Of a stretch of DNA of 64,000 bases, positions 967 to 53,372 are shown one piece after another. Positions within the stretch are counted from its first letter, which is position 1, and the number at the start of each line of letters is the position of its first letter. The DNA comes from Lentimicrobiaceae bacterium (GTDB lineage: Bacteria; Bacteroidota; Bacteroidia; Bacteroidales; F082): positions 19,193-83,192 of the forward strand of contig SUWV01000009.1 in NCBI GenBank assembly GCA_015061315.1, given 5' to 3'. Made by a program: the position numbers and the translations under genes. Under the pieces are notes generated by a model that saw nothing but the letters and a program-made list of their open reading frames with translations, was not told the DNA's origin and did not search any database.

Positions 967-983
967 AATGCAAAGATAAAAAA

Positions 984-1182
984 AGTCTAAAGTCTAAAGT
1001 CTAAGGTCTAAAGATTTTTTTAAGTCACCGAGTCGCTTAGACAATAAGTCAATAAGACAATAAGTCAATGAGTAGAGAATACGTGAGACATTACACCGAT
1101 AGAAATAAACAAGGTGTAATTGGTGCGTCTCTATATCTTTTCAGATTTTCAGATTCTCAGTTTCTCAGATTTTCAATTTCTC
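984..1182. repeat. composite intergenic repeat, copy A (AGTCTAA x4 / GACAATAAGTCAATAAG tract / TAGAGA hairpin / CAGATTYT x5)
   Basis: (AGTCTAA)n lies at 984-1013 and the GTCAATAAG-type tract at 1040-1073. The hairpin is TAGAGAATACGTGAGACATTACACC (1073-1097) ... GGTGTAATTGGTGCGTCTCTA (1113-1133), with a perfect 8-bp ATTACACC/GGTGTAAT core. The CAGATTYT tract lies at 1142-1182. Confidence 0.8.
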
Positions 1183-1779
1183 AAAAGCGAATCCTTTTTC
1201 TGAATAATATTCAAGTACTTTTGTCAAAGTCGGTATCATATTTTTTTCGGCTTTTTCGCTATCATGGAAGACAATGATACTACCGTCGTCAGCATTTTTA
1301 ATTATATTCTTGAAGCAATCTTCTGGGCTTAGGGTTTTATCCCAGTCGTAAGATATAACGCTCCAAGCTATGAGTTTGTAATGATTTTTCAGCTTTCTTA
1401 TCTGCGACGATTTTATCCTTCCGTGAGGCGGACGAAACAAGGCAGATTGTATCAGTTGTTGTGTTTTATCAACAGAAATTATATAATCATCAGTTTTCGT
1501 ATTCCAGCCTTTTTCATGATTATAAGTATGACCTCCCACCGAATGACCTTCACTGACAATCATATCGAAAGTCGTTTTATATTTTTCTATGTTATTACCG
1601 ACGCAGAAGAATGTCGCTTTAGCATTAAATTTTTTTAAGATTTCAAGTACCTTAGGCGTTATGCTTGGGTGTGGCCCATCGTCGAAGGTGATATATAGTT
1701 TTTTTTCGCCCTTTGGCATCTTCCAAATCAGCGAAGGATAGAACATTCTTAATATAAAAGGAGTCGTAATGAAGCGCAA
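1165..1779 (-). CDS. polysaccharide deacetylase (NodB homology domain)
   Basis: Motifs TFDDGP, ATFFCVG and GHSVGGHTYNH match the carbohydrate esterase 4 / NodB signatures. The start may be an internal Met. The stop codon lies inside a CAGATTYT repeat tract. Confidence 0.8.
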   Translation of the reverse strand: MRFITTPFILRMFYPSLIWKMPKGEKKLYITFDDGPHPSITPKVLEILKKFNAKATFFCVGNNIEKYKTTFDMIVSEGHSVGGHTYNHEKGWNTKTDDYIISVDKTQQLIQSALFRPPHGRIKSSQIRKLKNHYKLIAWSVISYDWDKTLSPEDCFKNIIKNADDGSIIVFHDSEKAEKNMIPTLTKVLEYYSEKGFAFEKLKI

Positions 1780-1865: not shown

Positions 1866-2047
1866 GTTTCAATGTACAATGAACAATTAACAATTAACAA
1901 TGTACAATTTATAATTTATTAATGAATATTAGCCTTTAGACCTTTGCCTTTAGCCTTTAATCCTCCGACTAAATTCCGTTTGCAAAAATAATATTTTTTT
2001 TCGATAATTTATTTTTCATTTTGCATTTATTATTTTGCCAAAATAAT

Positions 2048-3286: not shown

Positions 3287-4300
3287 TTGAATAAGAGAGC
3301 ATCCAACGTAATAACATATATTATTTTCCTCTTATTAGGGATTCTTCTTCTTTGGCTTTGCTTCAGAAAGATAGAGTTCTCACAGGTATTGGATTACGTC
3401 AAAACGGCAAAATATTCATGGATGCTCATCAGCCTCGCATGCTTAGCAATTTCGTTATTCTTCAGAGCCTTACGATGGAATATCTTGATAGAGTCGTTAG
3501 GATATAAGACAAGAGTCTCAACGACTTACGAATCGGTCTTAATAGCTTATTTCGCTAACACTGTCTTTCCTCGACTCGGTGAGGTGACGCGTTGCGGAAC
3601 TCTCACTAAAAAAGAAAACATACCCTTCGACAAGTCATTCGGGACTGTAGTCTCAGAACGCATCATCGACCTTGTCATACTTCTCGCAATGGCATTGTTA
3701 GTCATTCTGTTTCAATGGAATCTGTTAGGAAGCCTCATCACATCCTGGCTCAATCCTCTCATAGAAAAACTGACAAGTAATATTCTCATGGGAATTATCG
3801 TCATTACCTTGACAATAGTGTTTTGTCTCGCTATCGTGTTAATCTTCAGAAAGAACAGAGAGAAAATATCACAAAATAAATTGTATAGAAAAATAGCCTC
3901 TATATGGGACGGTTTTGTCGATGGCATGAAGTCGATTTTCACTATGGAAAAGAAAGGCTTGTTTATCATCTATACATTATTAATATGGGGATTTTATGTC
4001 GTGATGACATGGCTGCCATTCTATATGCTTCCTGAGACATCACATCTCGGGCTGACAGAAGCAGTGACTTTGTTAGGACTCGCCACCTTAGGCGTCGTAG
4101 CTCCAGTTCCAGGCGGAATGGGCGTATATCATTTCATAGGTATATTGTTGCTCAACGGTTTCTACGGAATATCAGAATCAGCGGCAGTGTCGTTCGTGAC
4201 GATAAATCACACAAGTCAGATGATATTTTATTTAGTGACAGGAGTTATTGCTTACGTCATTATGTTCTTTGTTGACAGACGTTTGCCTGTTAATGACTAA
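3287..4300 (+). CDS. flippase-like / lysylphosphatidylglycerol-synthase TM-region (UPF0104) family membrane protein
   Basis: A 337-aa polytopic membrane protein. FPRLGEVTRCG and the C-terminal PGGMGV motif resemble UPF0104. It appears to use a TTG start 4 nt after panD. Confidence 0.55.
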   Translation: MNKRASNVITYIIFLLLGILLLWLCFRKIEFSQVLDYVKTAKYSWMLISLACLAISLFFRALRWNILIESLGYKTRVSTTYESVLIAYFANTVFPRLGEVTRCGTLTKKENIPFDKSFGTVVSERIIDLVILLAMALLVILFQWNLLGSLITSWLNPLIEKLTSNILMGIIVITLTIVFCLAIVLIFRKNREKISQNKLYRKIASIWDGFVDGMKSIFTMEKKGLFIIYTLLIWGFYVVMTWLPFYMLPETSHLGLTEAVTLLGLATLGVVAPVPGGMGVYHFIGILLLNGFYGISESAAVSFVTINHTSQMIFYLVTGVIAYVIMFFVDRRLPVND

Positions 4301-4341
4301 AGACTAAAGGCTAAAGACTAAAGGGAATAGGAAATTATAAC

Positions 4342-6063: not shown

Positions 6064-6117
6064 AGATAGGAAAAAGGGGAAAGACGAAAGTCTAAAGTCT
6101 AAAGATTTTTTAACTTT

Positions 6118-6741: not shown

Positions 6742-6791
6742 GCAATTTTCAGATGTGTCAATTTCGTATTGTTAAAATCATTGGTGTAATC

Positions 6792-6966
6792 GACGCGTCT
6801 CTACAAATTGTCAATTGTACATTTTCAACTGTTAATTGTAAATTGTAAATTAATTTGGGCGTTCCGGCTACGCCGTCGGGCTTTCCGCTATATCTTTTTC
6901 CGCTTCGCTCCAAAAGGATGTCGCTCCAATCCCTAACGCAAAGCGGCTACTATGTACAGACGCGTC
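6792..6966. repeat. 14-bp inverted repeats (GACGCGTCTCTACA / TGTACAGACGCGTC) enclosing 147 bp of word repeats plus a GC-rich island
   Basis: The arms at 6792-6805 and 6953-6966 match 13/14 as reverse complements. The arm sequence belongs to the TAGAGACG hairpin family seen elsewhere in the window. Confidence 0.6.
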
Positions 6967-7979: not shown

Positions 7980-8038
7980 AATTATATTTCTTTTTACATC
8001 AAATTTTCTCAATTTTTCAGATTTTCAGATTCTCAATT

Positions 8039-8240
8039 TTAAGGGGGCTTCTATAAATTGCTTTGCAAATGATTTATGAATTTTTATTGAGAAGATTTTT
8101 GTATTTCTTGAAAGAACATAGCGAGCTATGTGATTGAAAGAAAGACGAAAAGATTCCAATAAAAAGCATAAAGCGTGCAAAAGTTTTTACTGTCATTGTT
8201 AAAAGTTATTAAAACGGGGAATTTATAGAAGTCCCCTTAA
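8039..8240. mobile_element. MITE-like element or long imperfect palindrome bounded by 21-bp terminal inverted repeats
   Basis: TTAAGGGGGCTTCTATAAATT (8039-8059) matches the reverse complement of AATTTATAGAAGTCCCCTTAA (8220-8240) at 20/21 positions. Inner symmetric segments lie at 8060-8078 and 8167-8183. There is a central 7-bp hairpin ACATAGC-GA-GCTATGT at 8116-8131. No ORF is present. Confidence 0.45.
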
Positions 8241-18499: not shown

Positions 18500-19860
18500 T
18501 TCTTAATTTTTTTATAGCTATAAAACGTGTCAATTATTGTTTCGATTAGATTAACATAATCTTTTGCCAAAGCACGTCGTGAATAATTTTCAACGACTTC
18601 GTTTTTCTTTGTAATAAGTTGATTTTCTTTATATTTATTAAACAAATCAATAATTGCGTTTTTCATTCCCTCTTTATCATCAAAGTCGACGATAAAACCA
18701 GATTTCGTTTTGTCGAGGATAATTGCTGTGTCACCGTCAGTTGGACCAATAGCGAAAATCGGTCGTCCTGATGCCATATATTCAAAGATTTTTCCAGTCA
18801 TGATGCCTTTAGCGTTAGGCGAATTGTTAATAAATAATAACAAAATCTGAGATGAACTCTGTTCCGCAATCACCTTTTCATGAGGAATATAAGGAATTAT
18901 CTCGACATTATTCTCCAAATTATTTTTCTTAATAGATTCAATGACAGAATTATCGACTTGACCTATCAATCTAATTTTTAGCAGTTTAGAAAAATCTTTG
19001 ATATTATCTTCCTTTATTATTTCACCAAGAGTTTCCCAAAAACGAACTGCATTTCTCGCCGCGCCTACTATTCCTACATGCGACATCGTGAAATCTGAAG
19101 ATAATTTAACATTTGTTAATTTTTCTTCAATATTAAAATCGTATCCGTTAGTAATAACTTCTACATTTTTTGCGCCGTGACCTTCGAGACCTTTAGCCCA
19201 ATCCCAACCTACTGTCACGACTTTATCAGCTTCAGTAAGAACTTGATATTGAAGATTATGATGTTTCTTTAAACTTCTTTTTGTCAATTTCAATTCACTA
19301 AAGAAATCGATGTCGGTCCAAGGATCGCGGAAGTCGGCAATCCAAGGAATGTTAAATTTTTTATGTAATTCTTTAGCGATAAGATGCATTGAATGAGGAG
19401 GTCCCGTTGAGATAATCGCATCGACAGGATTCTTTTCTAAATATTTTTTAAGAAAATTAATTGAAGGTTTAATCCACCAACAACGAGCGTCAGGAATAAA
19501 TAAATTTCCTCTTAACCAAACACTTAGATTTTCTTTCCATGAAGATTTCTTCTTACCTTCATTGATAAATCCAGCCTTTATCTTCTCATCCTTCTTGATT
19601 CCTAAAAACTTCTTATATAAAGAATAAGGCTCAACTATTTTACGTCTTAATATCTCAGCGTCAGGAGCTACATCTTTTTCCAACGACAGATCCTCAACAG
19701 GATATTCAGCATCTTCGGCAGTGTAAATAACAGGTTGCCAGCCATTTTCAGGAAAATACTTCGACATCTTCAACCAACGTTGAACGCCAGATCCGCCCGA
19801 TGGAGGCCAGTAGTATGTTATGATTAGCACACGTTTCATTTCTATAAAGTCAACAGACAA
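18496..19860 (-). CDS. glycosyltransferase, GT-B fold (GT4-like)
   Basis: VLIITYYWPPSGGSG at the N-terminus and a C-terminal E-x7-E-like region (KIFEYMASGRPIFA). The likely start is the Met at 19839. Confidence 0.7.
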   Translation of the reverse strand: MSVDFIEMKRVLIITYYWPPSGGSGVQRWLKMSKYFPENGWQPVIYTAEDAEYPVEDLSLEKDVAPDAEILRRKIVEPYSLYKKFLGIKKDEKIKAGFINEGKKKSSWKENLSVWLRGNLFIPDARCWWIKPSINFLKKYLEKNPVDAIISTGPPHSMHLIAKELHKKFNIPWIADFRDPWTDIDFFSELKLTKRSLKKHHNLQYQVLTEADKVVTVGWDWAKGLEGHGAKNVEVITNGYDFNIEEKLTNVKLSSDFTMSHVGIVGAARNAVRFWETLGEIIKEDNIKDFSKLLKIRLIGQVDNSVIESIKKNNLENNVEIIPYIPHEKVIAEQSSSQILLLFINNSPNAKGIMTGKIFEYMASGRPIFAIGPTDGDTAIILDKTKSGFIVDFDDKEGMKNAIIDLFNKYKENQLITKKNEVVENYSRRALAKDYVNLIETIIDTFYSYKKIKK

Positions 19861-19863
19861 CGG

Positions 19864-22329
19864 TCAACAGTCAACAGACTTTGTACAATTTGATTTTCTA
19901 TATGTTACGACAATCGCTGCTATTAAACCTAAGATTAATATCAAAGATGAAATAAGTTGGATTGTGTTGCCTACTTTCCAAATCTTAGGTTCGTAGCGCA
20001 TCATAATCTCATGATTGCCAGCTGGAATGACAGCAGCTCTCAAGATATAATCAGCTCTAATCAAAGGAGATTCTTTTCCGTCTATCCATAATGTCCAGCC
20101 TTTATTTGTCCAGATTTCTGAGAAGACAACTAACTCATCTTTTGAAGAATTAAAACTGTAAACCAATTCGTTAGGTTTGTATGATTCTAATTTTATTGTT
20201 CCAGATACTGATGAAGGATTAAAATCGCCGATAACAGTTCTAAATTCGTCATTGACAATCGCAGTTGTTTTAACATCTGTATTTTCTATAGCTGCTATCT
20301 CTTCATTTGGTGTTGTAACCCATTTAATATCAGACACAATCCAAGCGTTTCCGAAAGCATCAGGATTTATGTTGGCGACAGCTTTATTATTATTCTGAGG
20401 ATAAATCAGATATTTAGTATTCATCATATTAAGTACATTCCAGAAACCGTTGCTTCCCATTTTATTCCCTCCAAGATAACGATTTATAACATCTTGATAA
20501 CGACGAAGTTTTGCACCATGATAACCGCCTATAGATTTATGGAAATATGATGTACTTGCATCGTTGAATGTATTTTTCGTCAAGTCCATAACTCTGTAAT
20601 TCAAGCTGTTATCTTGAAGTATCTGTTTATCTATTTCCGACATCACGAAAGGTTTATCAAAACGACGGCTATCGATGAAATTGTCATTATTAAGATAACG
20701 TTTATTTATCGGGAACATATCAAGGACAACGAGAGCAGCGAGCATTACAAACATTGCATTATTTTTTAACTTACCGTTAATATTTATTAACAAAATGATA
20801 GCGGCTACTGTAATAAACAAGAAACTTCTTATTGCATCTTTCTGGAAAATCGCCATACGAACCTTTTCCAATTCAGCCGCGAATGTCTGATAGATAGCAC
20901 CATCTTTACCTGCTCCCAACTGTGCGAACTGTGAGGCTTCGCCTTGACTTAAGAAGTTAAAGAAAACATTAGGAATGATGTAGAATAAAAGGCATAAACC
21001 TGCTGTTAATCCGAAAGATATGTAGAAGTAATACATATTTTTCTTTAATATTTCTGGATTTTTCATCACTTCCGCGAGAGCGAGGAACGCCAATATCGGC
21101 ATACATACTTCAGCGATTACTAGCGTCATTGAGACTGCCCTGAATTTATTATACATCGGGAAATAGTCGAGGAAGAAGTCGGTGAATCCCATGAAGTTCT
21201 TACCCCAACTCAATAATATTGAGAGGATTGTAGCGATGAGCAACACCCATTTTATTTTTCCTTTAACAACGAAAAGACCGAGTACGAAGAAGAAGCAGAC
21301 TATCGCACCCACGTAAACCGGTCCGCTTGTTCCAGGCTGATCGCCCCAGTAAGCGTTATTTTGAGCTATCATTGAGCGGAAACGAGGACTTGCTTTTTCT
21401 AAGGCTGGATTGTCGTTGCCGATATAAGCCGAAGCGCCGCCTTTCACATTAGGAATCATCAAACTCCAAGTCTCACCGATGCCATAACTCCATTGAGTCA
21501 CATAGTCTCTATCCAATCCACGAGTTTGATTGCCAGTATTTTCTGTAAGAACAGGTTTTCCACGCATCGTTTCTTTACCAAATTCGTAATTAGCGTAAAG
21601 CGTTGTAGTGCTTGTAAGAATTGCTAAAATCGCTGCGCATACAAGGATTCCGCTTGCCTTGAAAAATTCGGGATATTTTTTGTTTTTGATAGTCTCGATA
21701 AACTCAGCTATGACAAAAATCAACACTATAATGAAGAGATAATATGTGATTTGAATGTGACCAGCTCTTATCTCCAAGGCGAGAGCTATTGCTGTAAGAA
21801 CCGCTCCCCATAGATATTTTCCTTTGTAAGTCAATATGATACCTGCAATTACCGGAGCCATATAAGCCATTGCGACAGCTTTTGAATTATGACCAGCACC
21901 CATCACTATGAAGAGATAGGAAGTGAAACCGTATGCCAATGCGCCAATGAAGCTAATCCAGATTTTACAATCGAGGACGAGAAGCAGAATGAAAAATCCG
22001 AGCATACTGATAAAGACGGACATTATCGGGCTTGGAAATCCTAAACCAATGATTTTCTGAACGTAAGTCATTAGATTAGAATTTTGTTGAACGCCGATAT
22101 TCCATGCAGGCATACCACCAAACATTGAATTCGTCCATAACGACTGTTCGCCAGTCTCTTCTCTAAACTGATTGATTTCCTGAGACATTCCTTTATACAT
22201 CTCAATATCATGTTGCTTAATTCTTTTGCCTTCAAGAATTGGCGTGAAATAAACTAAAGTTATCGCTGCAAAAGCAATAATCGCGAATATAACTCCAAGA
22301 AATTGTTTGTTTTTAAAAATATCTTTCAT
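19864..22329 (-). CDS. YfhO-family polytopic membrane protein (GT-C-like)
   Basis: 821 aa, with more than 12 predicted TM segments in the first 550 aa, then a soluble C-terminal domain and a terminal TM. The size and topology are typical of YfhO proteins. Confidence 0.65.
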   Translation of the reverse strand: MKDIFKNKQFLGVIFAIIAFAAITLVYFTPILEGKRIKQHDIEMYKGMSQEINQFREETGEQSLWTNSMFGGMPAWNIGVQQNSNLMTYVQKIIGLGFPSPIMSVFISMLGFFILLLVLDCKIWISFIGALAYGFTSYLFIVMGAGHNSKAVAMAYMAPVIAGIILTYKGKYLWGAVLTAIALALEIRAGHIQITYYLFIIVLIFVIAEFIETIKNKKYPEFFKASGILVCAAILAILTSTTTLYANYEFGKETMRGKPVLTENTGNQTRGLDRDYVTQWSYGIGETWSLMIPNVKGGASAYIGNDNPALEKASPRFRSMIAQNNAYWGDQPGTSGPVYVGAIVCFFFVLGLFVVKGKIKWVLLIATILSILLSWGKNFMGFTDFFLDYFPMYNKFRAVSMTLVIAEVCMPILAFLALAEVMKNPEILKKNMYYFYISFGLTAGLCLLFYIIPNVFFNFLSQGEASQFAQLGAGKDGAIYQTFAAELEKVRMAIFQKDAIRSFLFITVAAIILLININGKLKNNAMFVMLAALVVLDMFPINKRYLNNDNFIDSRRFDKPFVMSEIDKQILQDNSLNYRVMDLTKNTFNDASTSYFHKSIGGYHGAKLRRYQDVINRYLGGNKMGSNGFWNVLNMMNTKYLIYPQNNNKAVANINPDAFGNAWIVSDIKWVTTPNEEIAAIENTDVKTTAIVNDEFRTVIGDFNPSSVSGTIKLESYKPNELVYSFNSSKDELVVFSEIWTNKGWTLWIDGKESPLIRADYILRAAVIPAGNHEIMMRYEPKIWKVGNTIQLISSLILILGLIAAIVVTYRKSNCTKSVDC

Positions 22330-22353
22330 ATAATTTACAGTTAATTAACAATT

Positions 22354-29860: not shown

Positions 29861-29908
29861 CTCTATAATTTTATTAGTGTTAAGTTTTATTTATTTTATG
29901 GAAGCAAT

Positions 29909-29932
29909 AAGGACGCAATTCAATGCGTCCTT
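29909..29932 (-). terminator. hairpin terminator downstream of paralog 2
   Basis: AAGGACGCA-attcaa-TGCGTCCTT is a perfect 9-bp stem located 13 nt after the stop of 29945..31825. Confidence 0.6.
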
Positions 29933-29944
29933 ACATTTTGTATT

Positions 29945-31825: not shown

Positions 31826-31892
31826 AATTTATAATTTTAATGTTATGATATATTTGTTTACGAGTCTACAAATATAAGAAATAATATTCAAT

Positions 31893-31930: not shown

Positions 31931-31949
31931 ATGTTAAAATCTGTTAAGA

Positions 31950-36420: not shown

Positions 36421-37419
36421 ATGAATTGTTTTAAATCGAACGGTAAATTTTTATTGACGGGAGAGTATCTCGTTTTGAAGGGCGCTACTGCTTTGGCTCT
36501 TCCCTTGGCATTAGGACAGAGCATGGAGGTAGAAATTTTAGGCTCCAACGATGGCAGGATTTATTGGGAAGCGCTTTTGAAGCCTGCGGTCAATGGTTTA
36601 TGGTCTACAGACATCGTTCATAGTGAAATACCTTGGTTTAAGGTTGTTTTAGACAAAAGAGATTTTAGTGTTGTTGCGACTGACGACAAGGAAAGAGCTG
36701 AGCGTTTGTCGGATATATTATCGAAGGCTAAGAGACTGAACGAAACTCTTTTTGATGAGCCGAGCGACTATAAATTCTGCACATATTTGGATTTCGACCC
36801 GCACTGGGGTCTGGGCAGCAGCTCCACCTTAATTAATAATATAGCCGAATGGGCTAATATAAATCCTTATCTTTTGTTGGACGAGACTTTCAAAGGCTCT
36901 GGCTACGACATAGCATGCGCTAAGGCGGAAGCACCAATCTTTTATCAAATCAACGAATCGACAGGACAAAGAGTCAATGAGTCGAGAGCGGCAAACTTCA
37001 ATCCTTCTTTTAAAGATAATATTTACTTTATATATCAAGGTCATAAGCAAAATTCTGCCAATGAAGTAAAGGCTTTCTTGGATAAGAAGAAAAATTATGA
37101 TAGAGAAATTAAATCGATCAGCGAGATCAGCAGAATTATTCCTGACATACAGACACTCAGTGATTTCAATTATTTCATCAAAGTTCATGAAGAGATAATG
37201 TCGAGCTGCTTAGAACGTAAACGCATAAAAAAACATTTCAACGATTTTGAAGGTGAGATGAAATCGCTCGGAGCATGGGGCGGCGATTTCTTCATGGCAG
37301 CCACAGAATGGGACGATGATAAAGTAATTGAATATTTTAGAAATAAAGGACTTGATGTTATTTTCAAATATAACGACATAATATTAAATCGTGAAATTGA
37401 AAAAACTCTAACCCTTTAA
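36421..37419 (+). CDS. GHMP-family kinase, probable phosphomevalonate kinase (ERG8-like)
   Basis: GKFLLTGEYLVLKGATALALP at the N-terminus, the GHMP motif HWGLGSSSTL, and the operon context. Confidence 0.6.
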   Translation: MNCFKSNGKFLLTGEYLVLKGATALALPLALGQSMEVEILGSNDGRIYWEALLKPAVNGLWSTDIVHSEIPWFKVVLDKRDFSVVATDDKERAERLSDILSKAKRLNETLFDEPSDYKFCTYLDFDPHWGLGSSSTLINNIAEWANINPYLLLDETFKGSGYDIACAKAEAPIFYQINESTGQRVNESRAANFNPSFKDNIYFIYQGHKQNSANEVKAFLDKKKNYDREIKSISEISRIIPDIQTLSDFNYFIKVHEEIMSSCLERKRIKKHFNDFEGEMKSLGAWGGDFFMAATEWDDDKVIEYFRNKGLDVIFKYNDIILNREIEKTLTL

Positions 37420-37452
37420 CACCTCTAATCCTTTAACCCTCTAACACCCACA

Positions 37453-38472
37453 ATGAATAATCAGATAATAAAACATAGTCCATCTAATATCGCAATAGTA
37501 AAATATTGGGGCAAACACGGAAATCAACTTCCTAATAATCCGTCTATCAGTTTTACCTTAAGTAATTGCTTTACAGAAACGAAAATAACTTACAGCAATA
37601 TAGATTCTCAGTTTTTCAAATCCTCAGATTCTCAGATTTCTTTAGATTTCTTTTTTGAAGGAAAGGAAAATCAAGCTTTTAAAGATAAGATAGAGAAGTT
37701 TATTCTGAAGAACGAACAATATTTTTCTTTCTTAAAAGGGCTTCATCTGAATATTGAAAGTCGCAATTCTTTTCCACATTCTTCTGGCATCGCTTCGAGT
37801 GCATCATCTATGAGTGCATTGGTAATGTGCTTATTAGGAATTAAATATAAAGACAGAGAGATTGATTTACAGGAGGCTTCATTTCTTTCAAGATTAGCAT
37901 CGGGCAGTGCAGCTCGTTCTGTATATCCGACAATGACCTTGTGGGGGAAAACTCCAACATTGTCGAATAGTTCCGATGAGTACGCCATTCCTATAGGCGA
38001 TATGATAGCACCAGTCTTCAAGTCATATCACGACACAATATTGATTGTCAGCTCAAAGGAAAAAAGTGTTTCAAGCCGCGCTGGTCATTCCTTGATGGAA
38101 AATCACCCTATGGCAGAAAGTCGTTACGCCACAGCAAGAAAAAATACTGAAGATTTATTGACGATTTTAAAACAAGGCGACATAGAAGGTTTTATAAAAA
38201 TAGCCGAAGCTGAAGCTAATCAGCTGCACGATTTAATGGCAACATCAAAGCCTTCATATACTCTCAAAGAACCTAATACTATTAATATCATTAATAAAAT
38301 TTTAGAATTTAGAAAAGACACTTCTCTTCCAATATGTTATACATTAGACGCTGGTCCTAACGTACATCTTCTCTATCCTGATTTCTGCGCCGATAAGGTT
38401 CAGCTCTTCATTGAAGACGTGTTGAAAGACTATTGTTTTGATAATAAATATATCGAGGATAAGGTTGGATGA
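37453..38472 (+). CDS. mvaD: diphosphomevalonate decarboxylase
   Basis: SPSNIAIVKYWGK, FPHSSGIASSASS and YTLDAGPNVH are MVD signatures. Confidence 0.9.
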   Translation: MNNQIIKHSPSNIAIVKYWGKHGNQLPNNPSISFTLSNCFTETKITYSNIDSQFFKSSDSQISLDFFFEGKENQAFKDKIEKFILKNEQYFSFLKGLHLNIESRNSFPHSSGIASSASSMSALVMCLLGIKYKDREIDLQEASFLSRLASGSAARSVYPTMTLWGKTPTLSNSSDEYAIPIGDMIAPVFKSYHDTILIVSSKEKSVSSRAGHSLMENHPMAESRYATARKNTEDLLTILKQGDIEGFIKIAEAEANQLHDLMATSKPSYTLKEPNTINIINKILEFRKDTSLPICYTLDAGPNVHLLYPDFCADKVQLFIEDVLKDYCFDNKYIEDKVG

Positions 38473-38536
38473 GGAATGAAGAATGTAGAATGTAGAATGA
38501 AGAATGTAGAATGGTTAATGCTTATTGACTTATATC

Positions 38537-45008: not shown

Positions 45009-46778
45009 ATGATGAAACATTACAACATACCGATTTTTTTACCCGAACTCGCTTGCCCTTATCGCTGCGTTTATTGTAATCAATTTAGCATTACGGGAAA
45101 TGACGATATTGTAAAACCTGAAGATGTTAAGAATATAATCGACAGCCACTTAGCTTCTTTTAAAGAAGAAAATCGTTTCGTGGAAGTGGCTTTCTTCGGT
45201 GGTAATTTCACCGGACTTCCTGTCAAAATGCAAAACGATTATCTTGAAGTGGTGCAGCCTTATCTTGATAAAAATCTCATTCACGGTATTCGTTGTAGCA
45301 CTCGCCCCGATTATATCTCGCTTCAGCGTGTTAAAGAAATTAAACATCTCGGTATGCGTAACATCGAACTCGGAGCACAAAGCACTAACGACGAAGTTCT
45401 GAAACATTGTAAACGTGGTCATACTTACAACGACATCGTTGAGGCATCGCAGATAATTCTTTCCGAAGGAATTACGTTGGGACTACAAATGATGATAGGT
45501 CTTCCTTACGATTCTGAAGAGAAGGATTTTCAGACAGCAAAAGATATAGTAAATCTCGGAGCTAAAGAGACTCGCATCTATCCTTGTATCGTAGTGAAGG
45601 ACACTGAGTTAGAGGCTTTATATCGTAATGGAGATTATAAAGCTCTTTCTATCAATGAAGCTGTAAGTCGTTCTTCAAAATTATATTCTTATTTTATTGA
45701 AAATCAAGTTAAAGTTTTAAGAATAGGTCTGCATCAATCTGATGAGTTGGATAAAGAAGGTTACGTTGCCGGTCCATATCACAAGAATTTTGCTGAGATG
45801 GTTTTCTCTCATATCTGGAAAGAGAAGTTTGAGAATCTGAAAATCTCAGAATCTGAAAACCTGAAAAAAGACATAATAATCAATGTGCCTGCATCGCAGA
45901 TAAATCACGCTATAGGATGGAATGGCGAGAATAAGAGAATGTTGTTAGATCGATTTGATAAAGTAGAGTTTAAGGCTAATGACAAAAGACAAAAGACAAA
46001 AGATGAAGATGATGATTTTACGTTTACCATCACTACAAAAGACGAGCTTCCGACAATTATCGCTGATTCGAGAATGCCAGAGGATGCGAAGAAAAATCTG
46101 AAGAAATTAGGAAACGTCCTTTTCATCAATCCTACTTCTGTGACTTATAATTCAATATCTTCACATCCAGATATTTTCTTCTTTCAAAAAGACGATGCTT
46201 TGATTTATGCGCCCAATGCTCCGAAAAGAATAGTCAAGGAATTGAAGAAGCGAAAGATAAAACTCATCGAAGGCAAGAAAGAAGTCGGGAAGAAATATCC
46301 GGAGACGGTTCCTTATAACGCAGTCGGAATTGGAAATCTGTTGATACATAATTTAAAACATACCGACGAGACGATTTTGTCATCTTACGAAAATCACATA
46401 AATGTTAATCAAGGATATACGCGATGTAATCTTTTGGCTTTGAATGAAAATGCGTTTATCACGTCAGATGTTGGCATTTTCAATGTAGTCAACAGTCAAC
46501 AGACAACAGACAACAGTCTTTATCCACACGAATCTCTTGTAGGTACGTCCATATTGTACATCGACCCAAAACAAATTAAATTGGAAGGTCAGAAAAACGG
46601 ATTTTTCCCAGGCTGTTGCGGCGTTTGGAAAAACAATCTTATCGTTTGTGGCAGCACAAAAAATCTAAAAGAGAAAGCCGAATTAGATAAATTCTTGAAA
46701 GATAATAATTTCAATCTCATTGAATTATACGACGGAGATTTGATTGATGTGGGAAGCGTTTTTTCAATTGACAATTAA
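45009..46778 (+). CDS. radical SAM (ELP3-like) protein fused to a C-terminal domain of unknown function, possibly DUF6873/GME-fold-like
   Basis: The N-terminus has CPYRCVYCNQ (CxxxCxxC) and a radical SAM core of about 300 aa. The C-terminal 240 aa or so contains SSHPDIFFF and other features that I only tentatively associate with the DUF6873 family. Confidence 0.6.
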   Translation: MMKHYNIPIFLPELACPYRCVYCNQFSITGNDDIVKPEDVKNIIDSHLASFKEENRFVEVAFFGGNFTGLPVKMQNDYLEVVQPYLDKNLIHGIRCSTRPDYISLQRVKEIKHLGMRNIELGAQSTNDEVLKHCKRGHTYNDIVEASQIILSEGITLGLQMMIGLPYDSEEKDFQTAKDIVNLGAKETRIYPCIVVKDTELEALYRNGDYKALSINEAVSRSSKLYSYFIENQVKVLRIGLHQSDELDKEGYVAGPYHKNFAEMVFSHIWKEKFENLKISESENLKKDIIINVPASQINHAIGWNGENKRMLLDRFDKVEFKANDKRQKTKDEDDDFTFTITTKDELPTIIADSRMPEDAKKNLKKLGNVLFINPTSVTYNSISSHPDIFFFQKDDALIYAPNAPKRIVKELKKRKIKLIEGKKEVGKKYPETVPYNAVGIGNLLIHNLKHTDETILSSYENHINVNQGYTRCNLLALNENAFITSDVGIFNVVNSQQTTDNSLYPHESLVGTSILYIDPKQIKLEGQKNGFFPGCCGVWKNNLIVCGSTKNLKEKAELDKFLKDNNFNLIELYDGDLIDVGSVFSIDN

Positions 46779-46943
46779 CAGTTTACAATTAACAATTGAA
46801 AGAAATGTCACTTGATATGCAGCAACGACATCTCGTTTATTATTTTCTGTGTCGTTGATATGTCTCTATAGTTGTTGCTCAAAGCTCAAAGCTCATTGCC
46901 AAAAAATCTTTAGTCATTAGACTTTTGACTTTAGCCTTTTTTC

Positions 46944-46968: not shown

Positions 46969-48927
46969 ATGAAAAAAATTGAGCTTTTATCGCCGGCGAA
47001 GAATCTTGAAGTAGGCATCGCGGCTATCAATCATGGCGCTGATGCTGTGTATATTGGCGGACCGAGTTTTGGTGCGAGAGAGAAAGTTGGTAACAGCATT
47101 GAAGATATTGAGACTCTGTGCAGACACGCGGCTCTCTTCGATGCTAAAGTATATGTCACGATGAATACTCTCTTGTTCGACAATGAGTTAGAAGATGCTC
47201 GCAAGCTCGCTTACGACTGCTGGAATGCTGGTGTCGATGCACTCATAGTCCAGGATATGGCGCTGCTGAATATGGATATGCCTCCTATCGCACTTCACGC
47301 TTCGACTCAATGTCATAATATTGACGCAGAGAAGGTTAAGTTCTTGGAAGACGTAGGATTTTCTCAAGTCGTTTTGGCGAGAGAATTAAGCATCGAACAG
47401 ATAAAAGACATTCGTTCTAAGACGACAGTTCCGTTAGAATATTTCGTTCACGGTGCCTTGTGCGTCTCGTATAGCGGACAATGTTATTTGAGTCACGTCA
47501 TCGGTGGACGTTCCGCTAACAGAGGTGCCTGCGCTCAGCCTTGCCGTCTCAGCTGGAATCTCGAAAATGCGGAAGGCAAACGCTTGGCTACCAACAGACA
47601 TCTTCTTTCTTTAAGAGATCTGAATAACTCTAAAAACATAGAAGAACTCATCGACGCCGGAATCTCTTCTTTTAAGATTGAAGGCAGGTTGAAAGATATT
47701 GACTACGTGAAAAATGTCACTGCCTTTTACAGAAAGAAAATCGACGAAATCATTGAACGTCGCGACGATATTTGCAGAAGCTCACGCGGCGAAAGCAATC
47801 CCTCTTTCTATCCAAATCCAGAGAAATCGTTTTCAAGAGGCTTCACCGACTATTTCATCCACGGAAGACAAAAATATATCGACGCTCCATATTCGCCTAA
47901 GTCGATGGGAGAATATCTCGGAACGATAGAAAAAGTCAAGAATAAGTCAGTGACTATCAGAACAGGAAAAACGCTTCATAACGGCGACGGACTTTGTTTC
48001 TTAGACAGAGAAAACAATCTTTTAGGATTTAATGTTAACGCCGTGGCGGAAAACAAAACACGTTCTTTGACTCAGACTGTTACGAGCAACTCTGACATTT
48101 CGATGGCAACGCGATTTAAGATTGAAGGCAGCAAGATTTTCAGAAACAGCGACCTTGTCTGGCAGAAGGAAGTCGAGAAATCGCAAGGTAACAGAAAGAT
48201 GAAAATAGACTTGATATTTACTGATACAGAAGACGGATTTGCCTTGTCAGCGAAATTACATGATACAGATTCAGAATATATCACGACATATTTATCTACC
48301 GAGAAAGAAATCGCCAACAATGCGGATAAGGCGTTGGAAAATATCAAGAATAAACTATCGCAATGGGGCGATACGGAATTTGTGGTGGAGGAGTTTTGTT
48401 TTGGTCAACAAGACAACGAGACAACAAGTCACCGAGATGTGGAGTTGCAGAAATTTCCCGTAGAGACATACGGACGTATGTCTTATTTTATTAGGGCATC
48501 AGTTCTCGGTGAGATGAAAAAAGATTTGGTCGAGAAGCTACGTTCATATCTCATTGAGAAACATCGTGATGAAAGAGAACGTAGAGATGTCACTCCTGTA
48601 GAGACGTACGGACGTACGTCTTCACAACAAAATGTAATTTATCCTAAAGAACATCTTTCATATCTCGGCAATGTCATCAACAAGAAAGCGAGAGAGTTTT
48701 ACGAGCTTCATGGTGTGAAAGATATTGAAGACGGTTTGGAGAAAATCAAATCTAATGACGAGCTTGTTGTGATGACGACGAAACATTGTATTCGTTACGC
48801 TAATAATATATGTAGCAAGGAGATAGGGAAGCCAGCGACATCCTTATATTTGGTCAACGACAAAGGACGCTTCCGTCTCGATTTCGATTGCAGAAATTGT
48901 TGCATGAAAGTGATAAAAGAAAAATAA
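46969..48927 (+). CDS. peptidase U32 family protein (long form with a C-terminal extension)
   Basis: ELLSPA, GADAVYIGG, FVHGALCVSYSGQCYLS and SANRGACAQPCR are U32 signatures. The 652-aa product contains repeat-derived segments (see findings). Confidence 0.85.
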   Translation: MKKIELLSPAKNLEVGIAAINHGADAVYIGGPSFGAREKVGNSIEDIETLCRHAALFDAKVYVTMNTLLFDNELEDARKLAYDCWNAGVDALIVQDMALLNMDMPPIALHASTQCHNIDAEKVKFLEDVGFSQVVLARELSIEQIKDIRSKTTVPLEYFVHGALCVSYSGQCYLSHVIGGRSANRGACAQPCRLSWNLENAEGKRLATNRHLLSLRDLNNSKNIEELIDAGISSFKIEGRLKDIDYVKNVTAFYRKKIDEIIERRDDICRSSRGESNPSFYPNPEKSFSRGFTDYFIHGRQKYIDAPYSPKSMGEYLGTIEKVKNKSVTIRTGKTLHNGDGLCFLDRENNLLGFNVNAVAENKTRSLTQTVTSNSDISMATRFKIEGSKIFRNSDLVWQKEVEKSQGNRKMKIDLIFTDTEDGFALSAKLHDTDSEYITTYLSTEKEIANNADKALENIKNKLSQWGDTEFVVEEFCFGQQDNETTSHRDVELQKFPVETYGRMSYFIRASVLGEMKKDLVEKLRSYLIEKHRDERERRDVTPVETYGRTSSQQNVIYPKEHLSYLGNVINKKAREFYELHGVKDIEDGLEKIKSNDELVVMTTKHCIRYANNICSKEIGKPATSLYLVNDKGRFRLDFDCRNCCMKVIKEK

Positions 48928-50749: not shown

Positions 50750-50777
50750 GTAGAGACGCACAGCCGTGCGTCTTTAC
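50750..50777. repeat. TAGAGACG-family hairpin between aspS and pfkA
   Basis: GTAGAGACGCAC-agcc-GTGCGTCTTTAC is a 12-bp stem with one mismatch. Confidence 0.75.
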
Positions 50778-50803: not shown

Positions 50804-51898
50804 ATGAAACGAGTATTAGTATTAACAGGCGGCGGCGATTGTCCAGGTTTGAATGCCGTGATAAGAGCCATCGTGAAGAGAGCCTCGCAGGAAAAAGACT
50901 GGGAAGTCCTCGGCAGCATACAAGCCTTCAACGGAGTGCTATGGGAGCCATCAGAGATAGTGCGACTCACTCCTGAGACTGTGAGAGGAATACACTTCAG
51001 AGGCGGAACCATTTTAGAGACAACTAACAAAGGAGGCCCGTTCTCGTGGCCGGTGAAAAACAACGACGGCACTTGGACAACGGTAGATCGCTCCGATGAG
51101 ATGATCAAGAAACTGCAGTATATGGGCATCGACTGCGTCATCAATATCGGCGGTGACGGCTCGCAAAGAATATCAAAGAAGTTATTCGACAAAGGACTTA
51201 ATATAATAGGTGTTCCAAAGACTATCGATAACGACTTATCTATGACCGACAGCACTTTTGGTTATCAGACTGCCGTCGAGATAGCCACCGAGGCAGTAGA
51301 TAAGTTAGTCACAACGGCAGCAAGTCACAACCGCGTTTTTGTATTAGAGGTGATGGGTCGCGACGCCGGATGGATTGCTTTAAACGCAGCCGTTGCTGGC
51401 GGAGCGGAGGTGTGTCTCCTTCCAGAATTTCCTTACGACATAGAGAAAGTAAAAGAGAAGTTAGAGAGCCGCTTCGTCAATGACAGAGGTTTCGCTGTTG
51501 TTGTCATCTCTGAAGGCGCTAAGCCTAAAGACGGACAGCAGGTGTTTGAAGTCAGCAAGGAAGTAGGTTATGAAAACGTGAAACTTGGTGGCATCGGACA
51601 GAAGTTCATCGAGCAGATGAAAGCCGCAGGATTCAAACACGATATGCGCGAGACCACATTAGGTCACTTGCAAAGAGGCGGTGTGCCAATAGCATACGAC
51701 AGAGTGTTGGCATCGCAATTTGGCGTCAAAGCATTCGAGATGGTGTTGAATCAGGAATACGGAAATATGGTAGCTTATCGTCATCCGAATATTATCTCAG
51801 TACCTTTGAAAGACGCCGTCGCTAAGATGAATCTCGTCACCGAAGAACACGACTTAGTCAGAACCGCGAAAGGACTTGGAATCTCGTTGGGAATATAA
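50804..51898 (+). CDS. pfkA: 6-phosphofructokinase
   Basis: LTGGGDCPGLNAVIR, IGGDGS, PKTIDNDL and MGRDAG. Confidence 0.9.
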   Translation: MKRVLVLTGGGDCPGLNAVIRAIVKRASQEKDWEVLGSIQAFNGVLWEPSEIVRLTPETVRGIHFRGGTILETTNKGGPFSWPVKNNDGTWTTVDRSDEMIKKLQYMGIDCVINIGGDGSQRISKKLFDKGLNIIGVPKTIDNDLSMTDSTFGYQTAVEIATEAVDKLVTTAASHNRVFVLEVMGRDAGWIALNAAVAGGAEVCLLPEFPYDIEKVKEKLESRFVNDRGFAVVVISEGAKPKDGQQVFEVSKEVGYENVKLGGIGQKFIEQMKAAGFKHDMRETTLGHLQRGGVPIAYDRVLASQFGVKAFEMVLNQEYGNMVAYRHPNIISVPLKDAVAKMNLVTEEHDLVRTAKGLGISLGI

Positions 51899-51918
51899 GA
51901 AATTGAGAATCTGAGAAA

Positions 51919-51979
51919 CTGAGAATCTGAGAAATTGAGAAATTTTCAGATTTTCAAGTTTTCAGATTTTCAGTTTTTT
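51919..51979 (+). terminator. intrinsic terminator of pfkA built from word repeats
   Basis: The left arm at 51919-51941 (CTGAGAATCTGAGAAATTGAGAA) pairs with the right arm at 51951-51973 (TTTTCAAGTTTTCAGATTTTCAG). The stem is 23 positions with three G-U pairs and one mismatch. The loop is 9 nt and is followed by T6. Confidence 0.7.
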
Positions 51980-53240: not shown

Positions 53241-53372
53241 CAGTCTAAAGTCTACGGATTATTTAAGTCAATAAGTAGAGACGTGACACATTACACCTGT
53301 AAAAATGAAAGAGATGTAATTGGTGCGTCTCTCATTGTTTCTCAGATTCTCAGATTTTCAATTTCTCAGATT
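53241..53372. repeat. composite intergenic repeat, copy B (AGTCTAA tract / TTAAGTCAATAAG / TAGAGACG hairpin / CAGATTYT tract)
   Basis: Colinear with 984-1182. The hairpin is TAGAGACGTGACACATTACACC (53276-53297) ... GATGTAATTGGTGCGTCTCT (53313-53332). Confidence 0.8.

Follow-up and report, generated by a model that had tools for sequence, protein, structure and literature searches.

The spacers of the window, i.e., of the 64-kb stretch of DNA from an uncultured herbivore-gut Bacteroidales analysed here, hold a dispersed GTAG-headed palindromic hairpin of REP type and tandem arrays of 7- and 8-base units. Genes next to such repeats include mrdA and rodA, pfk, aspS, cistrons of a mevalonate operon and the genes of a radical-SAM protein, a U32 peptidase and a tRNA-Arg. 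In total, the window holds four long and five simple copies of the hairpin.

1072..1133, + strand: long REP copy 1; GTAG head and A-rich loop on the + strand, 3-nt insertion in the outer stem
53275..53333, + strand: long REP copy 2; in the 134-nt spacer between mrdA (PBP2) and rodA (genes by Pfam)
6751..6804, - strand: long REP copy 3, degenerate; GTAG head on the - strand (sequence and model)
46812..46871, - strand: long REP copy 4, divergent subfamily (sequence and model alignment)
50750..50777, + strand: simple GTAG REP GTAGAGACGCAC-AGCC-GTGCGTCTTTAC; 10-pair stem, between aspS and pfk
48460..48483, + strand: simple GTAG REP; within the U32 peptidase gene, read in frame as PVETYGRMS; no counterpart in L002
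48598..48621, + strand: simple GTAG REP; within the U32 peptidase gene, read in frame as PVETYGRTS; no counterpart in L002
13921..13948, - strand: simple GTAG REP GTAGAGGCACAC-GGAC-GTGTGTCT; inside ORF 13290-14468
29907..29934, - strand: simple REP-like hairpin GTAAGGACGCATTGAATTGCGTCCTT; spacer 29861-29944, 18 bits with the model

The hairpin in the window and in related genomes

The long hairpin is an imperfect palindrome of 55-60 nt, i.e., 5'-GTAGAGACG..CAATTACACC-[A-rich 16-nt loop]-TGTAATTG..CGTCTC(TAC), with an interrupted stem of 19-20 positions and a 16-nt A/T-rich loop that is conserved across genomes. We built a covariance model from hairpin copies in other genomes and then ran it on the window. 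The model (R1) matches copy 1 at 1064-1142 with 56.3 bits (E 2e-10) and copy 2 at 53267-53342 with 72.8 bits (E 2.8e-14). That is, the two colinear copies which a sequence-only reading had placed at 984-1182 and 53241-53372 are present, in the module order it gave. That reading had also listed three partial copies. Two of them are real long members, namely copy 3 within 6742-6810 (match at 6739-6812, 39.2 bits, E 1.8e-6) and copy 4 within 46800-46940 (match at 46803-46877, 37.0 bits, E 5.8e-6), while the third, 50750-50777, is a short relative (match at 50742-50785, 20 bits).

The window hairpins fold at -18.3 kcal/mol (copy 1, z -4.0) and -18.6 kcal/mol, i.e., with z about -4. Copy 3 follows a Flavo-1 RNA and closely precedes the ATG at 6741, and copy 2 is identical in 5 other aligned metagenome contigs and in 10/10 compared. 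Copies 1-3 carry the GTAG head, which has degenerated to ATAG in copy 4; the inner stem of the latter reads ACGACA/TGTCGT in place of ATTACA/TGTAAT, i.e., it differs by two compensatory pairs. For the 18-mer TGTAATTGGTGCGTCTCT, four matches with at most three mismatches are found in the window vs 0.04 expected. Rfam 15 assigns no family to the hairpin at either gathering or permissive thresholds (best score at most 18 bits vs gathering scores of 45-90).

A simple REP form, GTAGAGACGYAC-GGAC-GTRCGTCT, is also present in the window. The simple forms at 48460, 48598, 50750 and 13948 have stems of 9-10 pairs and loops of 2-4 nt, which places them within the size range of REPs (20-40 bp, stem 5-13 bp) that the long form exceeds. 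Here, we counted as simple REPs only the four copies with 9-10-pair stems that share GTAGAGRCRYAC. A generic census that accepts GTAG with any stem of 7 or more pairs is at chance level (22 found vs 20-39 in shuffles), and the candidate GTAGGGACG at 2171 was discarded as a chance match. The TAGAGACG...CGTCTCTA hairpin is probably a long, partly 'double-foot', GTAG-headed version of the simple REP.

An exact-pattern scan yielded 83 loci, from which we read about 90 distinct hairpin copies; they are spread over about 21 species-level MAGs of Bacteroidales from the guts of ruminants and other herbivores. Even with this strict pattern, about 25 copies stem from one MAG, RGIG4235. REPs of the GTAG superfamily share a GT[AG]G motif at a foot; here, GTAG is found 5' of the stem on the A-loop strand in about 83/93 copies. 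Among the scorable intergenic copies, 62/63 are located 3' of a gene and one between divergent genes. Relative to the flanking genes, 35+12 copies are co-directional, 15 convergent and 1 divergent, where the orientation counts are based on crude ORF calls and may include orthologous copies. For 76 copies, 83.5% of the stem cells are paired and one pair alternates AU/GC between subfamilies. The covariation statistics of these 76 copies are uninformative overall because the search pattern fixed most stem columns; compensatory change is seen only in one pair and in copy 4.

We also compared 4,656 copy pairs to locate the boundaries of the element. Non-orthologous copies are alike only between the feet, i.e., up to 14 nt left of ATTACA (mode) and 10-12 nt right of TGTAAT. 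Direct repeats at both ends are distributed as in permuted flanks, such that no target-site duplication is found, which speaks against calling the elements 'MITE-like' as the sequence-only reading had done. Relatives differ in which hairpin copies they carry, including copies that are in frame within genes. With regard to L002 (86% nucleotide identity in the U32 gene), two simple REPs are specific to the window and long-hairpin variants to L002, all of them in frame, and an orthologous spacer of L015 shows a hairpin where the window has a different repeat. The same-species contigs (set labelled L001-L010) are uninformative for turnover because their spacers are identical. We rejected the hairpin as an IS end: hairpins of the AAAGAGAATGAAAGAG-loop subfamily are found 3' of ATPase genes (AAA_14/DUF4143) that are themselves multi-copy, with no adjoining transposase.

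No REP-associated tyrosine transposase (RAYT) is encoded in the 64-kb window, i.e., the earlier statement that it lacks transposases and integrases holds for RAYTs, the class checked. A RAYT of subclass 2.4 is encoded in the hairpin-bearing sister MAG SGB_2770 (L086:1901-2557), 585 nt from a long hairpin. Its protein matches NCBIfam REP_Tyr_transpos with E 3.5e-14 and 52.9 bits (below the 80-bit cut-off) and Pfam Y1_Tnp with 20.9 bits (below the 23-bit cut-off). It shows NHFH, WQ and YIKNNP as well as three in-frame REPs, in agreement with the subclass 2.4 table in PMC6006769; the published traits of this subclass include 'double foot' REPs, in Cyanobacteria and Bacteroidetes (PMC6006769). A profile of L086 homologs finds PDB 4ER8, TnpA_REP (E 2e-7), and a single-sequence search against PDB gave no match. 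In another hairpin-bearing MAG, the RAYT is missing at the corresponding site. In a REPtron, the cognate single-copy RAYT of a genome has the same REP on its flanks. The sister-MAG gene is flanked and interrupted not by the long hairpin but by a different REP, GTAGGGACGTGGC-TT-GCCGCGTCC. Because of this, we infer the cognate pairing of RAYT and hairpin from the shared GTAG-RGACG foot.

Tandem arrays of 7- and 8-nt units

The tracts of the window are listed below, with the strand where one is assigned.

982..1013: [AGTCTAA] x4.6 (TRF); on the transcribed (-) strand immediately before the -7 box TATCTTTG that belongs to the gene starting at 966
1039..1073: [AAGWCAAT] x4 (TRF); abuts the GTAG head of copy 1
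1138..1184: [TTYTCAGA] x5.4 (TRF); overlaps the stop codon of gene 1165-1779 (-)
1870..1959: [CAATKWA]n + [TTAGCCT]n (TRF); adjoin tRNA-Arg
4291..4323: [TAAAGAC] x4.7 (TRF); begins at the stop codon of gene 3287-4300
6076..6103: [AAAGWCK]n (repeat families); upstream of the -7 box of the gene with ORF end 6063 (-)
6805..6851: [AAATTGT] x6.7 (TRF); between the Flavo-1 RNA and copy 3
7999..8040: (TTTTCAGA)n (TRF)
19848..19877: [AGTCAAC] x4.3 (TRF); gene junction
37406..37445: CTCTAACC/CTTTAACA (TRF); between two mevalonate-operon cistrons (Pfam); orthologous L015 spacer filled by related words
38469..38513: [GAATGWA] x6.4 (TRF); between mevalonate-operon cistrons; absent at the orthologous L015 junction
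45830..46003, + strand: (TGAAAATC)n + [GACAAAA]n; translated in frame, radical-SAM/DUF6873 linker; L002 has a tract plus a long hairpin at the site of the second tract
46765..46797: [CAATTAA] x4.7 (TRF); overlaps the radical-SAM stop codon; 35 nt in the L002 ortholog as well, with units changed in concert
46877..46942: [GCTCAAA]n + [TTAGWCW]n (TRF); precede the -7 box from which the U32 peptidase gene is read; 27-nt array in L002 reads [GTTGWCY]n
48406..48437, + strand: [CAACRAGW] x4; within the U32 peptidase gene and in frame, a little upstream of the REP inside this gene
51887..51978: inverted arrays [GAGAAWYT]n + [AGWTTTTC]n (TRF, inverted repeats); fill the convergent pfk-rodA spacer; identical in 10 contigs
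53241..53274: short [AGTCTAA] x2 + AAGTCAATAAG units; separate copy 2 from the rodA start codon
53339..53373: TTCTCAGA x4.4 (TRF); overlaps the mrdA stop codon
63096..63134: [TTTACAA/TTATAAT]n (TRF); between a -7 box and the ATG at 63086 (-)

The units flanking copy 2 are [AGTCTAA]n at 53241-53256, [AAGWCAAT]n at 53263-53274 and [TTYTCAGA]n at 53339-53373.

Tracts of period 7/8 with at least three units number 16 in the 3,823 intergenic bases of the window (544 nt, 14%) and 8 in its 60,177 coding bases, vs 0.2 intergenic and 0.3 coding tracts expected from dinucleotide-preserving shuffles; no other period is enriched. That is, the words are not at chance level (16 tracts vs 0.2), nor is the hairpin confined to two copies (83 loci elsewhere). 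For the spacers in which the sequence-only reading had listed word tracts, TRF confirms 10/11, the remaining one (22330-22353) being too short to score. Its claim that the words fill almost every spacer is overstated: tracts are present in about a third of all spacers of the window and in about half of the spacers that reach 40 nt. In 660 kb of related loci, we find 200+65 intergenic tracts of period 7/8 vs at most 12 for any other period, with 111 canonical units among the tracts. Tract density amounts to 9-14% of the intergenic bases, and tracts occupy 40% of the hairpin-less spacers vs 75% of the hairpin-bearing ones. Several tracts are inside ORFs.

The repeats are imperfect (72-92% matches, TRF). 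Two orthologous arrays (27 and 35 nt), the only such cases, hold position and length while all their units change in concert. The two arrays covered by all 10 independent same-species contigs are identical in each, and each remaining array is covered by one to three contigs, which show no differences. Two further ideas were tested and rejected, i.e., that the tract words derive from the hairpin arms (best matches are no better than for shuffled units) and that the tracts are selected as structure-free RNA (MFE z median 0, mean -0.8 vs shuffles).

Interpretation and alternatives

With a probability of about 0.72, we consider the REP hairpin and the period-7/8 tandem arrays to be two separate phenomena, the overlay of which gives the spacers their 'modular' look. 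The hairpin is then likely a non-autonomous repetitive extragenic palindrome of the GTAG 'double-foot' type. A multi-copy, non-autonomous REP-like family in place of ordinary AT-rich spacer, as proposed by the sequence-only reading, is borne out for the hairpin. It most likely was spread in trans by a single-copy RAYT, an HUH/Y1 transposase of subclass 2.4. This enzyme would act on single-stranded DNA, recognising the GTAG foot together with the hairpin, and its insertions would leave no target duplication. Once inserted 3' of genes or between cistrons, the element would form an RNA or DNA hairpin and may affect mRNA 3'-end stability. A point against reading the element as a REP is that it is longer than classical REPs and that its conserved 16-nt loop is foreign to simple REPs.

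The tracts, in turn, are in all likelihood tandem simple-sequence arrays of the LSSR/STRR kind. They are not copies of REP/MITE type, as the words had also been taken to be, because they far outnumber the hairpins, are also found where these are missing and turn over in place, with their units changing in concert. Such arrays would arise and homogenise in place through slippage or unequal exchange, i.e., by concerted evolution, and would persist at fixed positions adjoining stop codons, start codons and promoters, while coding DNA would tolerate them only where they are in frame in a linker. Slippage alone leaves unexplained the equal length of two orthologous arrays and the tracts that are invariant in 10 independent species assemblies.

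These features raise the alternative that the tracts are functional periodic cis-elements instead of neutral slippage products, e.g., arrays of sites for single-strand nucleic-acid-binding proteins, three-frame stop codons, or promoter-spacing/UP-like modules. Certain words are strongly biased in orientation (3' of stops, AACAATT is in the sense direction 17 times vs once), [TTAGACT]n immediately precedes the -7 box TATCTTTG at three promoters, the length of the two orthologous arrays is kept although their words have changed completely, and the tracts do not vary in 10 assemblies. Furthermore, post-transcriptional action has been proposed for STRR and TAACTGA repeats (PMC2670836; PMC4679880). 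On the other hand, the words are diverse (111 canonical units), a spacer with a tract in one species can be tract-free in another, folding of the tracts is not reduced relative to shuffled sequence (median z 0), and the length-conserved cases are two. Since all-frame stops necessarily end an ORF, part of the orientation bias follows from definition. Taking the three options jointly, we regard such a function as unlikely.

For the hairpin, it has to be considered that it could primarily be a conserved cis-acting RNA under selection, serving as a stabiliser in 3'-UTRs or between cistrons, for processing or for protein binding, and not mobile DNA. It is found in transcribed spacers, including the one inside the mrdA-rodA operon, its RNA folds well from either strand, its loop sequence is kept across genomes, and its orientation relative to genes is biased (35 vs 12). 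However, both orientations occur, the minority one in 3/4 of the long window copies, and G-U wobbles and C-A mismatches are even between the strands, such that neither strand is favoured. In addition, in-frame intragenic copies and presence/absence among close relatives indicate insertion and loss at the DNA level, and no Rfam family matches. Thus, this alternative appears quite unlikely. A role as intrinsic terminator, raised by the sequence-only reading, was rejected from a sequence scan: no U-tract (T-run) follows the hairpins on the transcribed (-) strand, for which the scan makes no call.

A more far-reaching and very doubtful idea is that the 7/8-nt arrays are a maintained system of periodic cis-elements which, together with REP hairpins, punctuates operons in Shine-Dalgarno-poor Bacteroidota. 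Hints at maintenance are the exact length and position kept by two arrays under concerted unit change and the enrichment of tracts in REP-bearing spacers. The arrays could provide sites for a single-strand nucleic-acid-binding protein or be a by-product of subclass 2.4 RAYT activity. The by-product version would account for the concentration of both STRR/TAACTGA arrays and subclass 2.4 RAYTs in Cyanobacteria and Bacteroidota.

Tracts and hairpin together are not one mobile module. The sequence-only reading had treated the composite as one element. This would be a BIME- or MITE-like block of tract, tract, hairpin and tract that is mobile or spread by recombination. In its favour, both window copies have shared words in the same order on either side of the hairpin; elsewhere, [RAGWCAAY]n or [ACAATTW]n is frequent on the GTAG side, as is [AATTATG]n on the opposite one, and tracts accompany the hairpin in 75% of its spacers. 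This is countered by the similarity of copy pairs halting at the hairpin feet, by flanking words that vary from copy to copy, by the tracts in 40% of the hairpin-less spacers and their change in place, and by the lack of both target-site duplications and any resemblance of words to hairpin arms beyond chance level. We thus consider this reading highly improbable and already largely refuted, i.e., the whole block would not travel as a unit. The two window copies look colinear because REPs prefer tract-rich 3' spacers and the words favour certain sides and positions.

Finally, it is hardly credible that the tracts are contingency loci, i.e., phase-variable SSRs toggling neighbouring genes, since, despite short tandem repeats near promoters and start codons like those of known phase-variable genes (PMC4679880), they are imperfect (72-92% matches), adjoin housekeeping genes (mrdA/rodA, the mevalonate pathway, pfk) and, for the two arrays that all 10 independent contigs cover, are constant in unit number.

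Comparison with known repeat systems

Like MITEs, the hairpin is short, non-autonomous, dispersed and palindromic. In contrast to MITEs, it shows no target-site duplication and no matching IS was seen; because the element is a single hairpin, it has no terminal inverted repeats bounding a segment of a parent IS. With the REPINs and BIMEs of E. coli and Pseudomonas it shares two inverted arms that form a long hairpin and its nature as a non-autonomous unit. BIMEs are mosaics of REPs and other short motifs, some with a protein-binding site between inverted REPs. Here, the neighbouring motifs are instead tandem 7/8-nt arrays outside the repeated unit. The arms GTAGAGACGnnnCAATTACACC are not themselves hairpins, and the element is therefore no REP doublet or REPIN; only the GACGCGTC subfamily has an 8-nt self-complementary core in its arms.

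To our knowledge, REP/RAYT systems have been studied almost only in Proteobacteria, and no description of this hairpin family was found in the literature searched. The closest agreement is with GTAG REPs and RAYT subclass 2.4 (RAYT group 4; Di Nocera 2013, PMC3733652; Quentin 2018, PMC6006769), i.e., a GTAG foot on an imperfect palindrome, with some copies ending in CTAC (double foot), tens of copies per genome, and a location 3' of genes, with hardly any copies between divergent ones. Subfamilies likewise differ through compensatory stem changes and G-T pairs, in-frame insertions are found in genes including that of the RAYT, and the hairpin clade encodes a RAYT with NHFH / WQ / YIKNNP. In contrast, the long form has 55-60 nt with an interrupted stem of 19-20 bp and a conserved loop, while classical REPs have 20-40 nt, and the sole RAYT examined here is flanked by a REP of another sequence. 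GTAG REPs were reported by Di Nocera 2013 for Proteobacteria, Cyanobacteria, Chloroflexi and the PVC group but not for Bacteroidetes (PMC3733652). Given its long double-foot REP with conserved loop, the many in-frame insertions in housekeeping genes and filled/empty sites between close relatives, the clade offers usable material on how subclass 2.4 RAYTs act.

The tracts resemble STRR, TAACTGA and heptamer LSSR arrays (PMC2670836; PMC4679880). The part of MacGregor 2015 (PMC4679880) drawn on here treats heptamer-rich long simple sequence repeats, citing Mrazek 2007. Both have units of 5-11 nt (mostly 7), are longer than expected by chance and mainly intergenic, with tandem 7-nt units near start and stop codons and between cistrons. 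They also share three-frame stop codons that result from the arrays, a few arrays in frame inside ORFs, and a sporadic phylogenetic distribution that includes Bacteroidetes. Different from these systems are the many word families (vs one to three), a period of 8 that is nearly as typical as 7, imperfect units, the very high density (9-14% of the intergenic bases) and the physical association with REP hairpins. The arrays are unusually dense, have two periods only and show concerted evolution at fixed positions; thus, the role of heptamer repeats, and why seven, can be tested in this gut lineage, for which many metagenomes exist. On the practical side, the repeats yield spurious ORF extensions and odd annotation peptides (VETYGR, SRDASM, DAASHVPT) and can break assemblies. 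Both kinds of repeat are already known, i.e., the window is a fresh example of them and not a new kind of system.

The hairpin family in the window and in other genomes

The sequence-only reading had described a REP/MITE-like modular element with colinear copies at 984-1182 and 53241-53372. Both copies are present there, and tandem repeat detection (TRF) together with an alignment (A1) yields the same plus-strand module order for both, i.e., [AGTCTAA]n, [AAGWCAAT]n, hairpin, [TTYTCAGA]n. The feature is real and was well observed. The two hairpins (copies 1 and 2) fold with about -18 kcal/mol (z about -4) and are flanked on both sides by co-directional minus-strand genes. An 18-mer of the 3' arm has 4 matches at up to 3 mismatches, compared to 0.04 expected. 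We scored the window with a covariance model trained on hairpin copies of other genomes. Three further copies had been taken as partial: two of them score 39.2 and 37.0 bits, the third 20 bits. Within the inner stem of copy 4 (46812-46871), ACGACA/TGTCGT replaces ATTACA/TGTAAT, i.e., two compensatory pairs.

Long hairpins and covariance-model matches in the window
1072-1133, hairpin copy 1, between a polysaccharide deacetylase gene and a Big_5 lipoprotein gene
53275-53333, hairpin copy 2, in the 134-nt spacer between mrdA (PBP2) and rodA
53267-53342, model match, 72.8 bits
1064-1142, model match, 56.3 bits
6739-6812, model match, 39.2 bits
46803-46877, model match, 37.0 bits
50742-50785, model match, 20 bits

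A genome scan with the pattern AGAGACGCRYCRATTACA-N13-35-TGTAAT returned 83 loci, almost all in about 21 species-level Bacteroidales MAGs (roe deer, yak, buffalo, cattle colon or cecum; 'Lentimicrobiaceae' SIG104-106; Ca. Limimorpha), one of which holds about 25 copies, with tandem clusters at some loci. The oriented consensus of the copies read is 5'-GTAGAGACG(Y)RYCAATTACACC-[AATGAAAATAAACAAT]-ATGTAATTGRYRCGTCTC(TAC). About 83/93 copies carry GTAG at one foot, some also a CTAC terminus, and 83.5% of stem cells are paired. Subfamilies vary in the mid-stem, where one pair is AU (34), GC (26) or GU (12); G-U and C-A stem cells are evenly distributed over both strands.

The window also holds a simple REP, GTAGAGRCRYAC-GGAC-GTRYGTCT, at 13948(-), 48460, 48598 and 50750 (there with loop AGCC). 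Because the long form has the stem of this REP as its outer stem, it is a simple GTAG REP whose inner stem is extended and whose loop is large.

Tandem hairpin clusters were seen at L052:4039-4183, L059:3100-5360 and L063:4610-4850 (loci from other gut metagenomes). In one of them three copies recur every 51 nt, of which the leading two lack the outer 3' arm; other clusters comprise four to five copies separated by spacer units of 81-92 nt. The Bacteroidales hairpin also occurs, in the same flanking context as at Bacteroidales loci, on a contig that carries the label of an Acutalibacteraceae (Firmicutes) MAG (L069, JAZNJB010000043.1) and is probably mis-binned. In strain L003, aspS and the U32 gene are separated by an inserted multi-copy AAA_14/DUF4143 ATPase gene (L003:11041-11870) that the window lacks; in other MAGs (L020, L090 and others), genes of this family bear at their 3' end a hairpin subfamily whose loop is AAAGAGAATGAAAGAG and after which comes TATTTGATTTGCAG.

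Herbivore-gut metagenomes at JGI and ENA contain contigs with RodA and its neighbourhood, and the mrdA-rodA spacer is identical in 10/10 contigs compared. The source organism is an uncultured Bacteroidales. Rfam matches in the window are a tRNA-Arg and a Flavo-1 RNA (RF01705, 6870-6952(-), 44.6 bits, gathering score 42). Directly 3' of Flavo-1 on its own strand follow an [ACAATTT]n tract, REP copy 3 and the start of a 207-aa protein without Pfam match.

Placement, ends and turnover of hairpins

Hairpins usually lie 4-60 nt past a stop codon. Their gene contexts, counted from crude ORF calls, are as follows.

Gene context of hairpin copies
co-directional genes, A-loop strand sense: 35 copies
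co-directional genes, A-loop strand antisense: 12 copies
convergent genes: 15 copies
divergent genes: 1 copy
intragenic: 5 copies

Among 4,656 copy pairs, sequence likeness stops sharply at the feet, on the left most often 14 nt from ATTACA (exactly GTAGAGACGnnnCA), on the right 10-12 nt from TGTAAT. No target-site duplication above chance was found at the hairpin ends.

Past the HMG-CoA reductase gene, L015 (a relative with 60-82% aa identity to the window) has a long hairpin where the window has a 49-nt repeat (36308-36408, 2.1 repeats, 92% identity, reaching to the next gene), each unit with two small hairpins, GCCTGAAGGGC and CGTATGGCATGGCCGTACG. At three sites the U32 peptidase gene (46969-48927; L002:13278-15197 in a second relative) accommodates insertions of REPs and tracts. 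Two simple REPs, which encode the peptide VETYGR, occur in the window only and a long-hairpin variant (peptide SRDASM...) in L002 only, all in frame. The insertions are read as PVETYGR(M/T)S (window) and SRDASMLPTIKHIDTS (L002), peptides that are possible handles for finding intragenic REPs in protein databases. Both genomes differ in a similar way at two sites of the radical-SAM/DUF6873 gene (45009-46778), whose domains are joined by a linker of about 85 aa that resembles a translated intergenic spacer, with tracts [TGAAAATC]n and [GACAAAA]n; the L002 linker contains a tract and a long hairpin in frame. The gene looks like a fusion through a spacer.

L002 and the window are 100% identical in RodA, the mrdA-rodA spacer and the pfk region, while the U32 gene reaches just 86% nt and the radical-SAM protein 84% aa identity. 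This suggests a recombination mosaic of related lineages.

Elsewhere in the window, at about 33-35 kb, the cumulative GC skew is lowest near 34 kb. There the genes switch strand at the divergent pair 33825-34865/34912-36312, with mostly minus-strand genes before it and plus-strand genes after it, which may mark a replication origin region or merely a local strand switch. Four paralogous minus-strand genes at 29093-34865 have their 3' ends in common (repeat families D3-D11) and seem to encode secreted proteins of one tandem family; the one checked (33825-34865) combines Por_Secre_tail (type IX secretion C-terminal sorting domain), thioredoxin-like and fn3 domains.

Tandem tracts of period 7 and 8

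TRF counts 16 tracts of three or more units and period 7-8 in the window's intergenic DNA (544/3,823 nt, 14%) and 8 in its coding DNA, while shuffling predicts 0.2 and 0.3, respectively; other periods show no enrichment in the window. Among 84 sources (660 kb), intergenic tracts number 200 at period 7, 65 at period 8 and at most 12 at any other period, and tracts cover 8.8% of intergenic versus 0.58% of coding bases. The words are limited (AACAATT 31, AACAGAC 31, AAAATTG 27, AATTATG 24, and others). Tracts are less frequent in divergent (34%) than in convergent spacers (56%), and also occur between operon cistrons (mrdA-rodA, mevalonate pathway) and, in some cases, in frame within protein linkers. 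Certain words prefer one orientation: just 3' of stop codons, AACAATT is found in sense 17 times vs 1. Part of this bias is definitional, as no ORF can run through an array that has stops in every frame.

Tracts and hairpin do not form one composite unit as had been proposed. Their association is a neighbourhood effect. Hairpin likeness ends at the feet, and tracts occur in 75% of spacers with a hairpin and in 40% of those without.

The tracts are not hypervariable, since they are unchanged in each same-species contig covering them (10/10 contigs at two arrays). Two arrays that are orthologous in the window and L002 agree in position and exact length, with units altered in concert.

Orthologous arrays
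upstream of the U32 promoter, window, 27 nt: TTAGTCA TTAGACT TTTGACT TTAGCC
upstream of the U32 promoter, L002, 27 nt: GTTGTCC GTTGACT GTTGTCC GTTGTC
past the radical-SAM stop codon, window, 35 nt: CAATTGA CAATTAA CAGTTTA CAATTAA CAATTGA
past the radical-SAM stop codon, L002, 35 nt: CAATTGA GAATTGA AAGTTGA AATTTGA AAATTTG

Given this concerted change, the word 'vocabulary' amounts to a few evolving array lineages. Other orthologous arrays differ in unit number (4 vs 5; L036, L058, L080), and one window array is missing in L015. Such change is typical of tandem repeats that evolve in concert; slippage alone does not account for the equal lengths.

Candidate transposase and relation to known systems

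Searching with E. coli RayT (phmmer), the sole find was the ORF L086:1901-2557 in the hairpin-bearing sister MAG SGB_2770, 585 nt from a copy. The protein has the motifs NHFH, WQ and YIKNNP, and three REPs lie in frame in its gene. It matches NCBIfam REP_Tyr_transpos (E 3.5e-14, 52.9 bits, under the equivalog cut-off) and Pfam Y1_Tnp (20.9 bits, under the cut-off of 23). Its homologs exceed 1,000, some named RayT, and their profile matches TnpA_REP (PDB 4ER8, E 2e-7). The gene occupies one syntenic site (suf genes/RAYT/DUF5700) in four loci. A double-foot REP, GTAGTGCTGTCATAATATGACAGCACTAC, lies 3' of the stop codon; homologs of the clade carry a variable insert of in-frame REPs (L086:2196-2338, alignment A5; peptides RDVACRV and DAA(S/R)(H/D)VPT). 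TnpA_Y1 subclass 2.4 (RAYT group 4) has 'canonical long' or 'double foot' REPs (GT[AG]G...C[TC]AC) and in-frame REP insertions in its own gene (PMC6006769; PMC5581495). The candidate's traits are the published signature of this subclass.

We infer that a RAYT mobilises the long hairpin rather than observe it, because the REP flanking the gene is a different one (GTAGGGACGTGGC-TT-GCCGCGTCC), the suf/DUF5700 site of SIG106 lacks the RAYT, and the 64-kb window contains none. The hairpin would spread by RAYT acting on single-stranded DNA, and may have a role in mRNA stability.

For the hairpin, a terminator, a known RNA family and a REPIN in the strict sense were rejected. From the REP/MITE-like reading, the REP part stands, given GTAG and the many copies; the MITE part is dropped, as target-site duplication is not above chance. 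The hairpin is a newly found member of the REP/RAYT kind. It has all defining features of GTAG REPs bar size; Bacteroidetes are not among the GTAG-REP phyla of Di Nocera et al. (PMC3733652). The tracts are a separate phenomenon, a very dense case of 7/8-nt tandem arrays that resemble heptamer LSSR, STRR and TAACTGA repeats.
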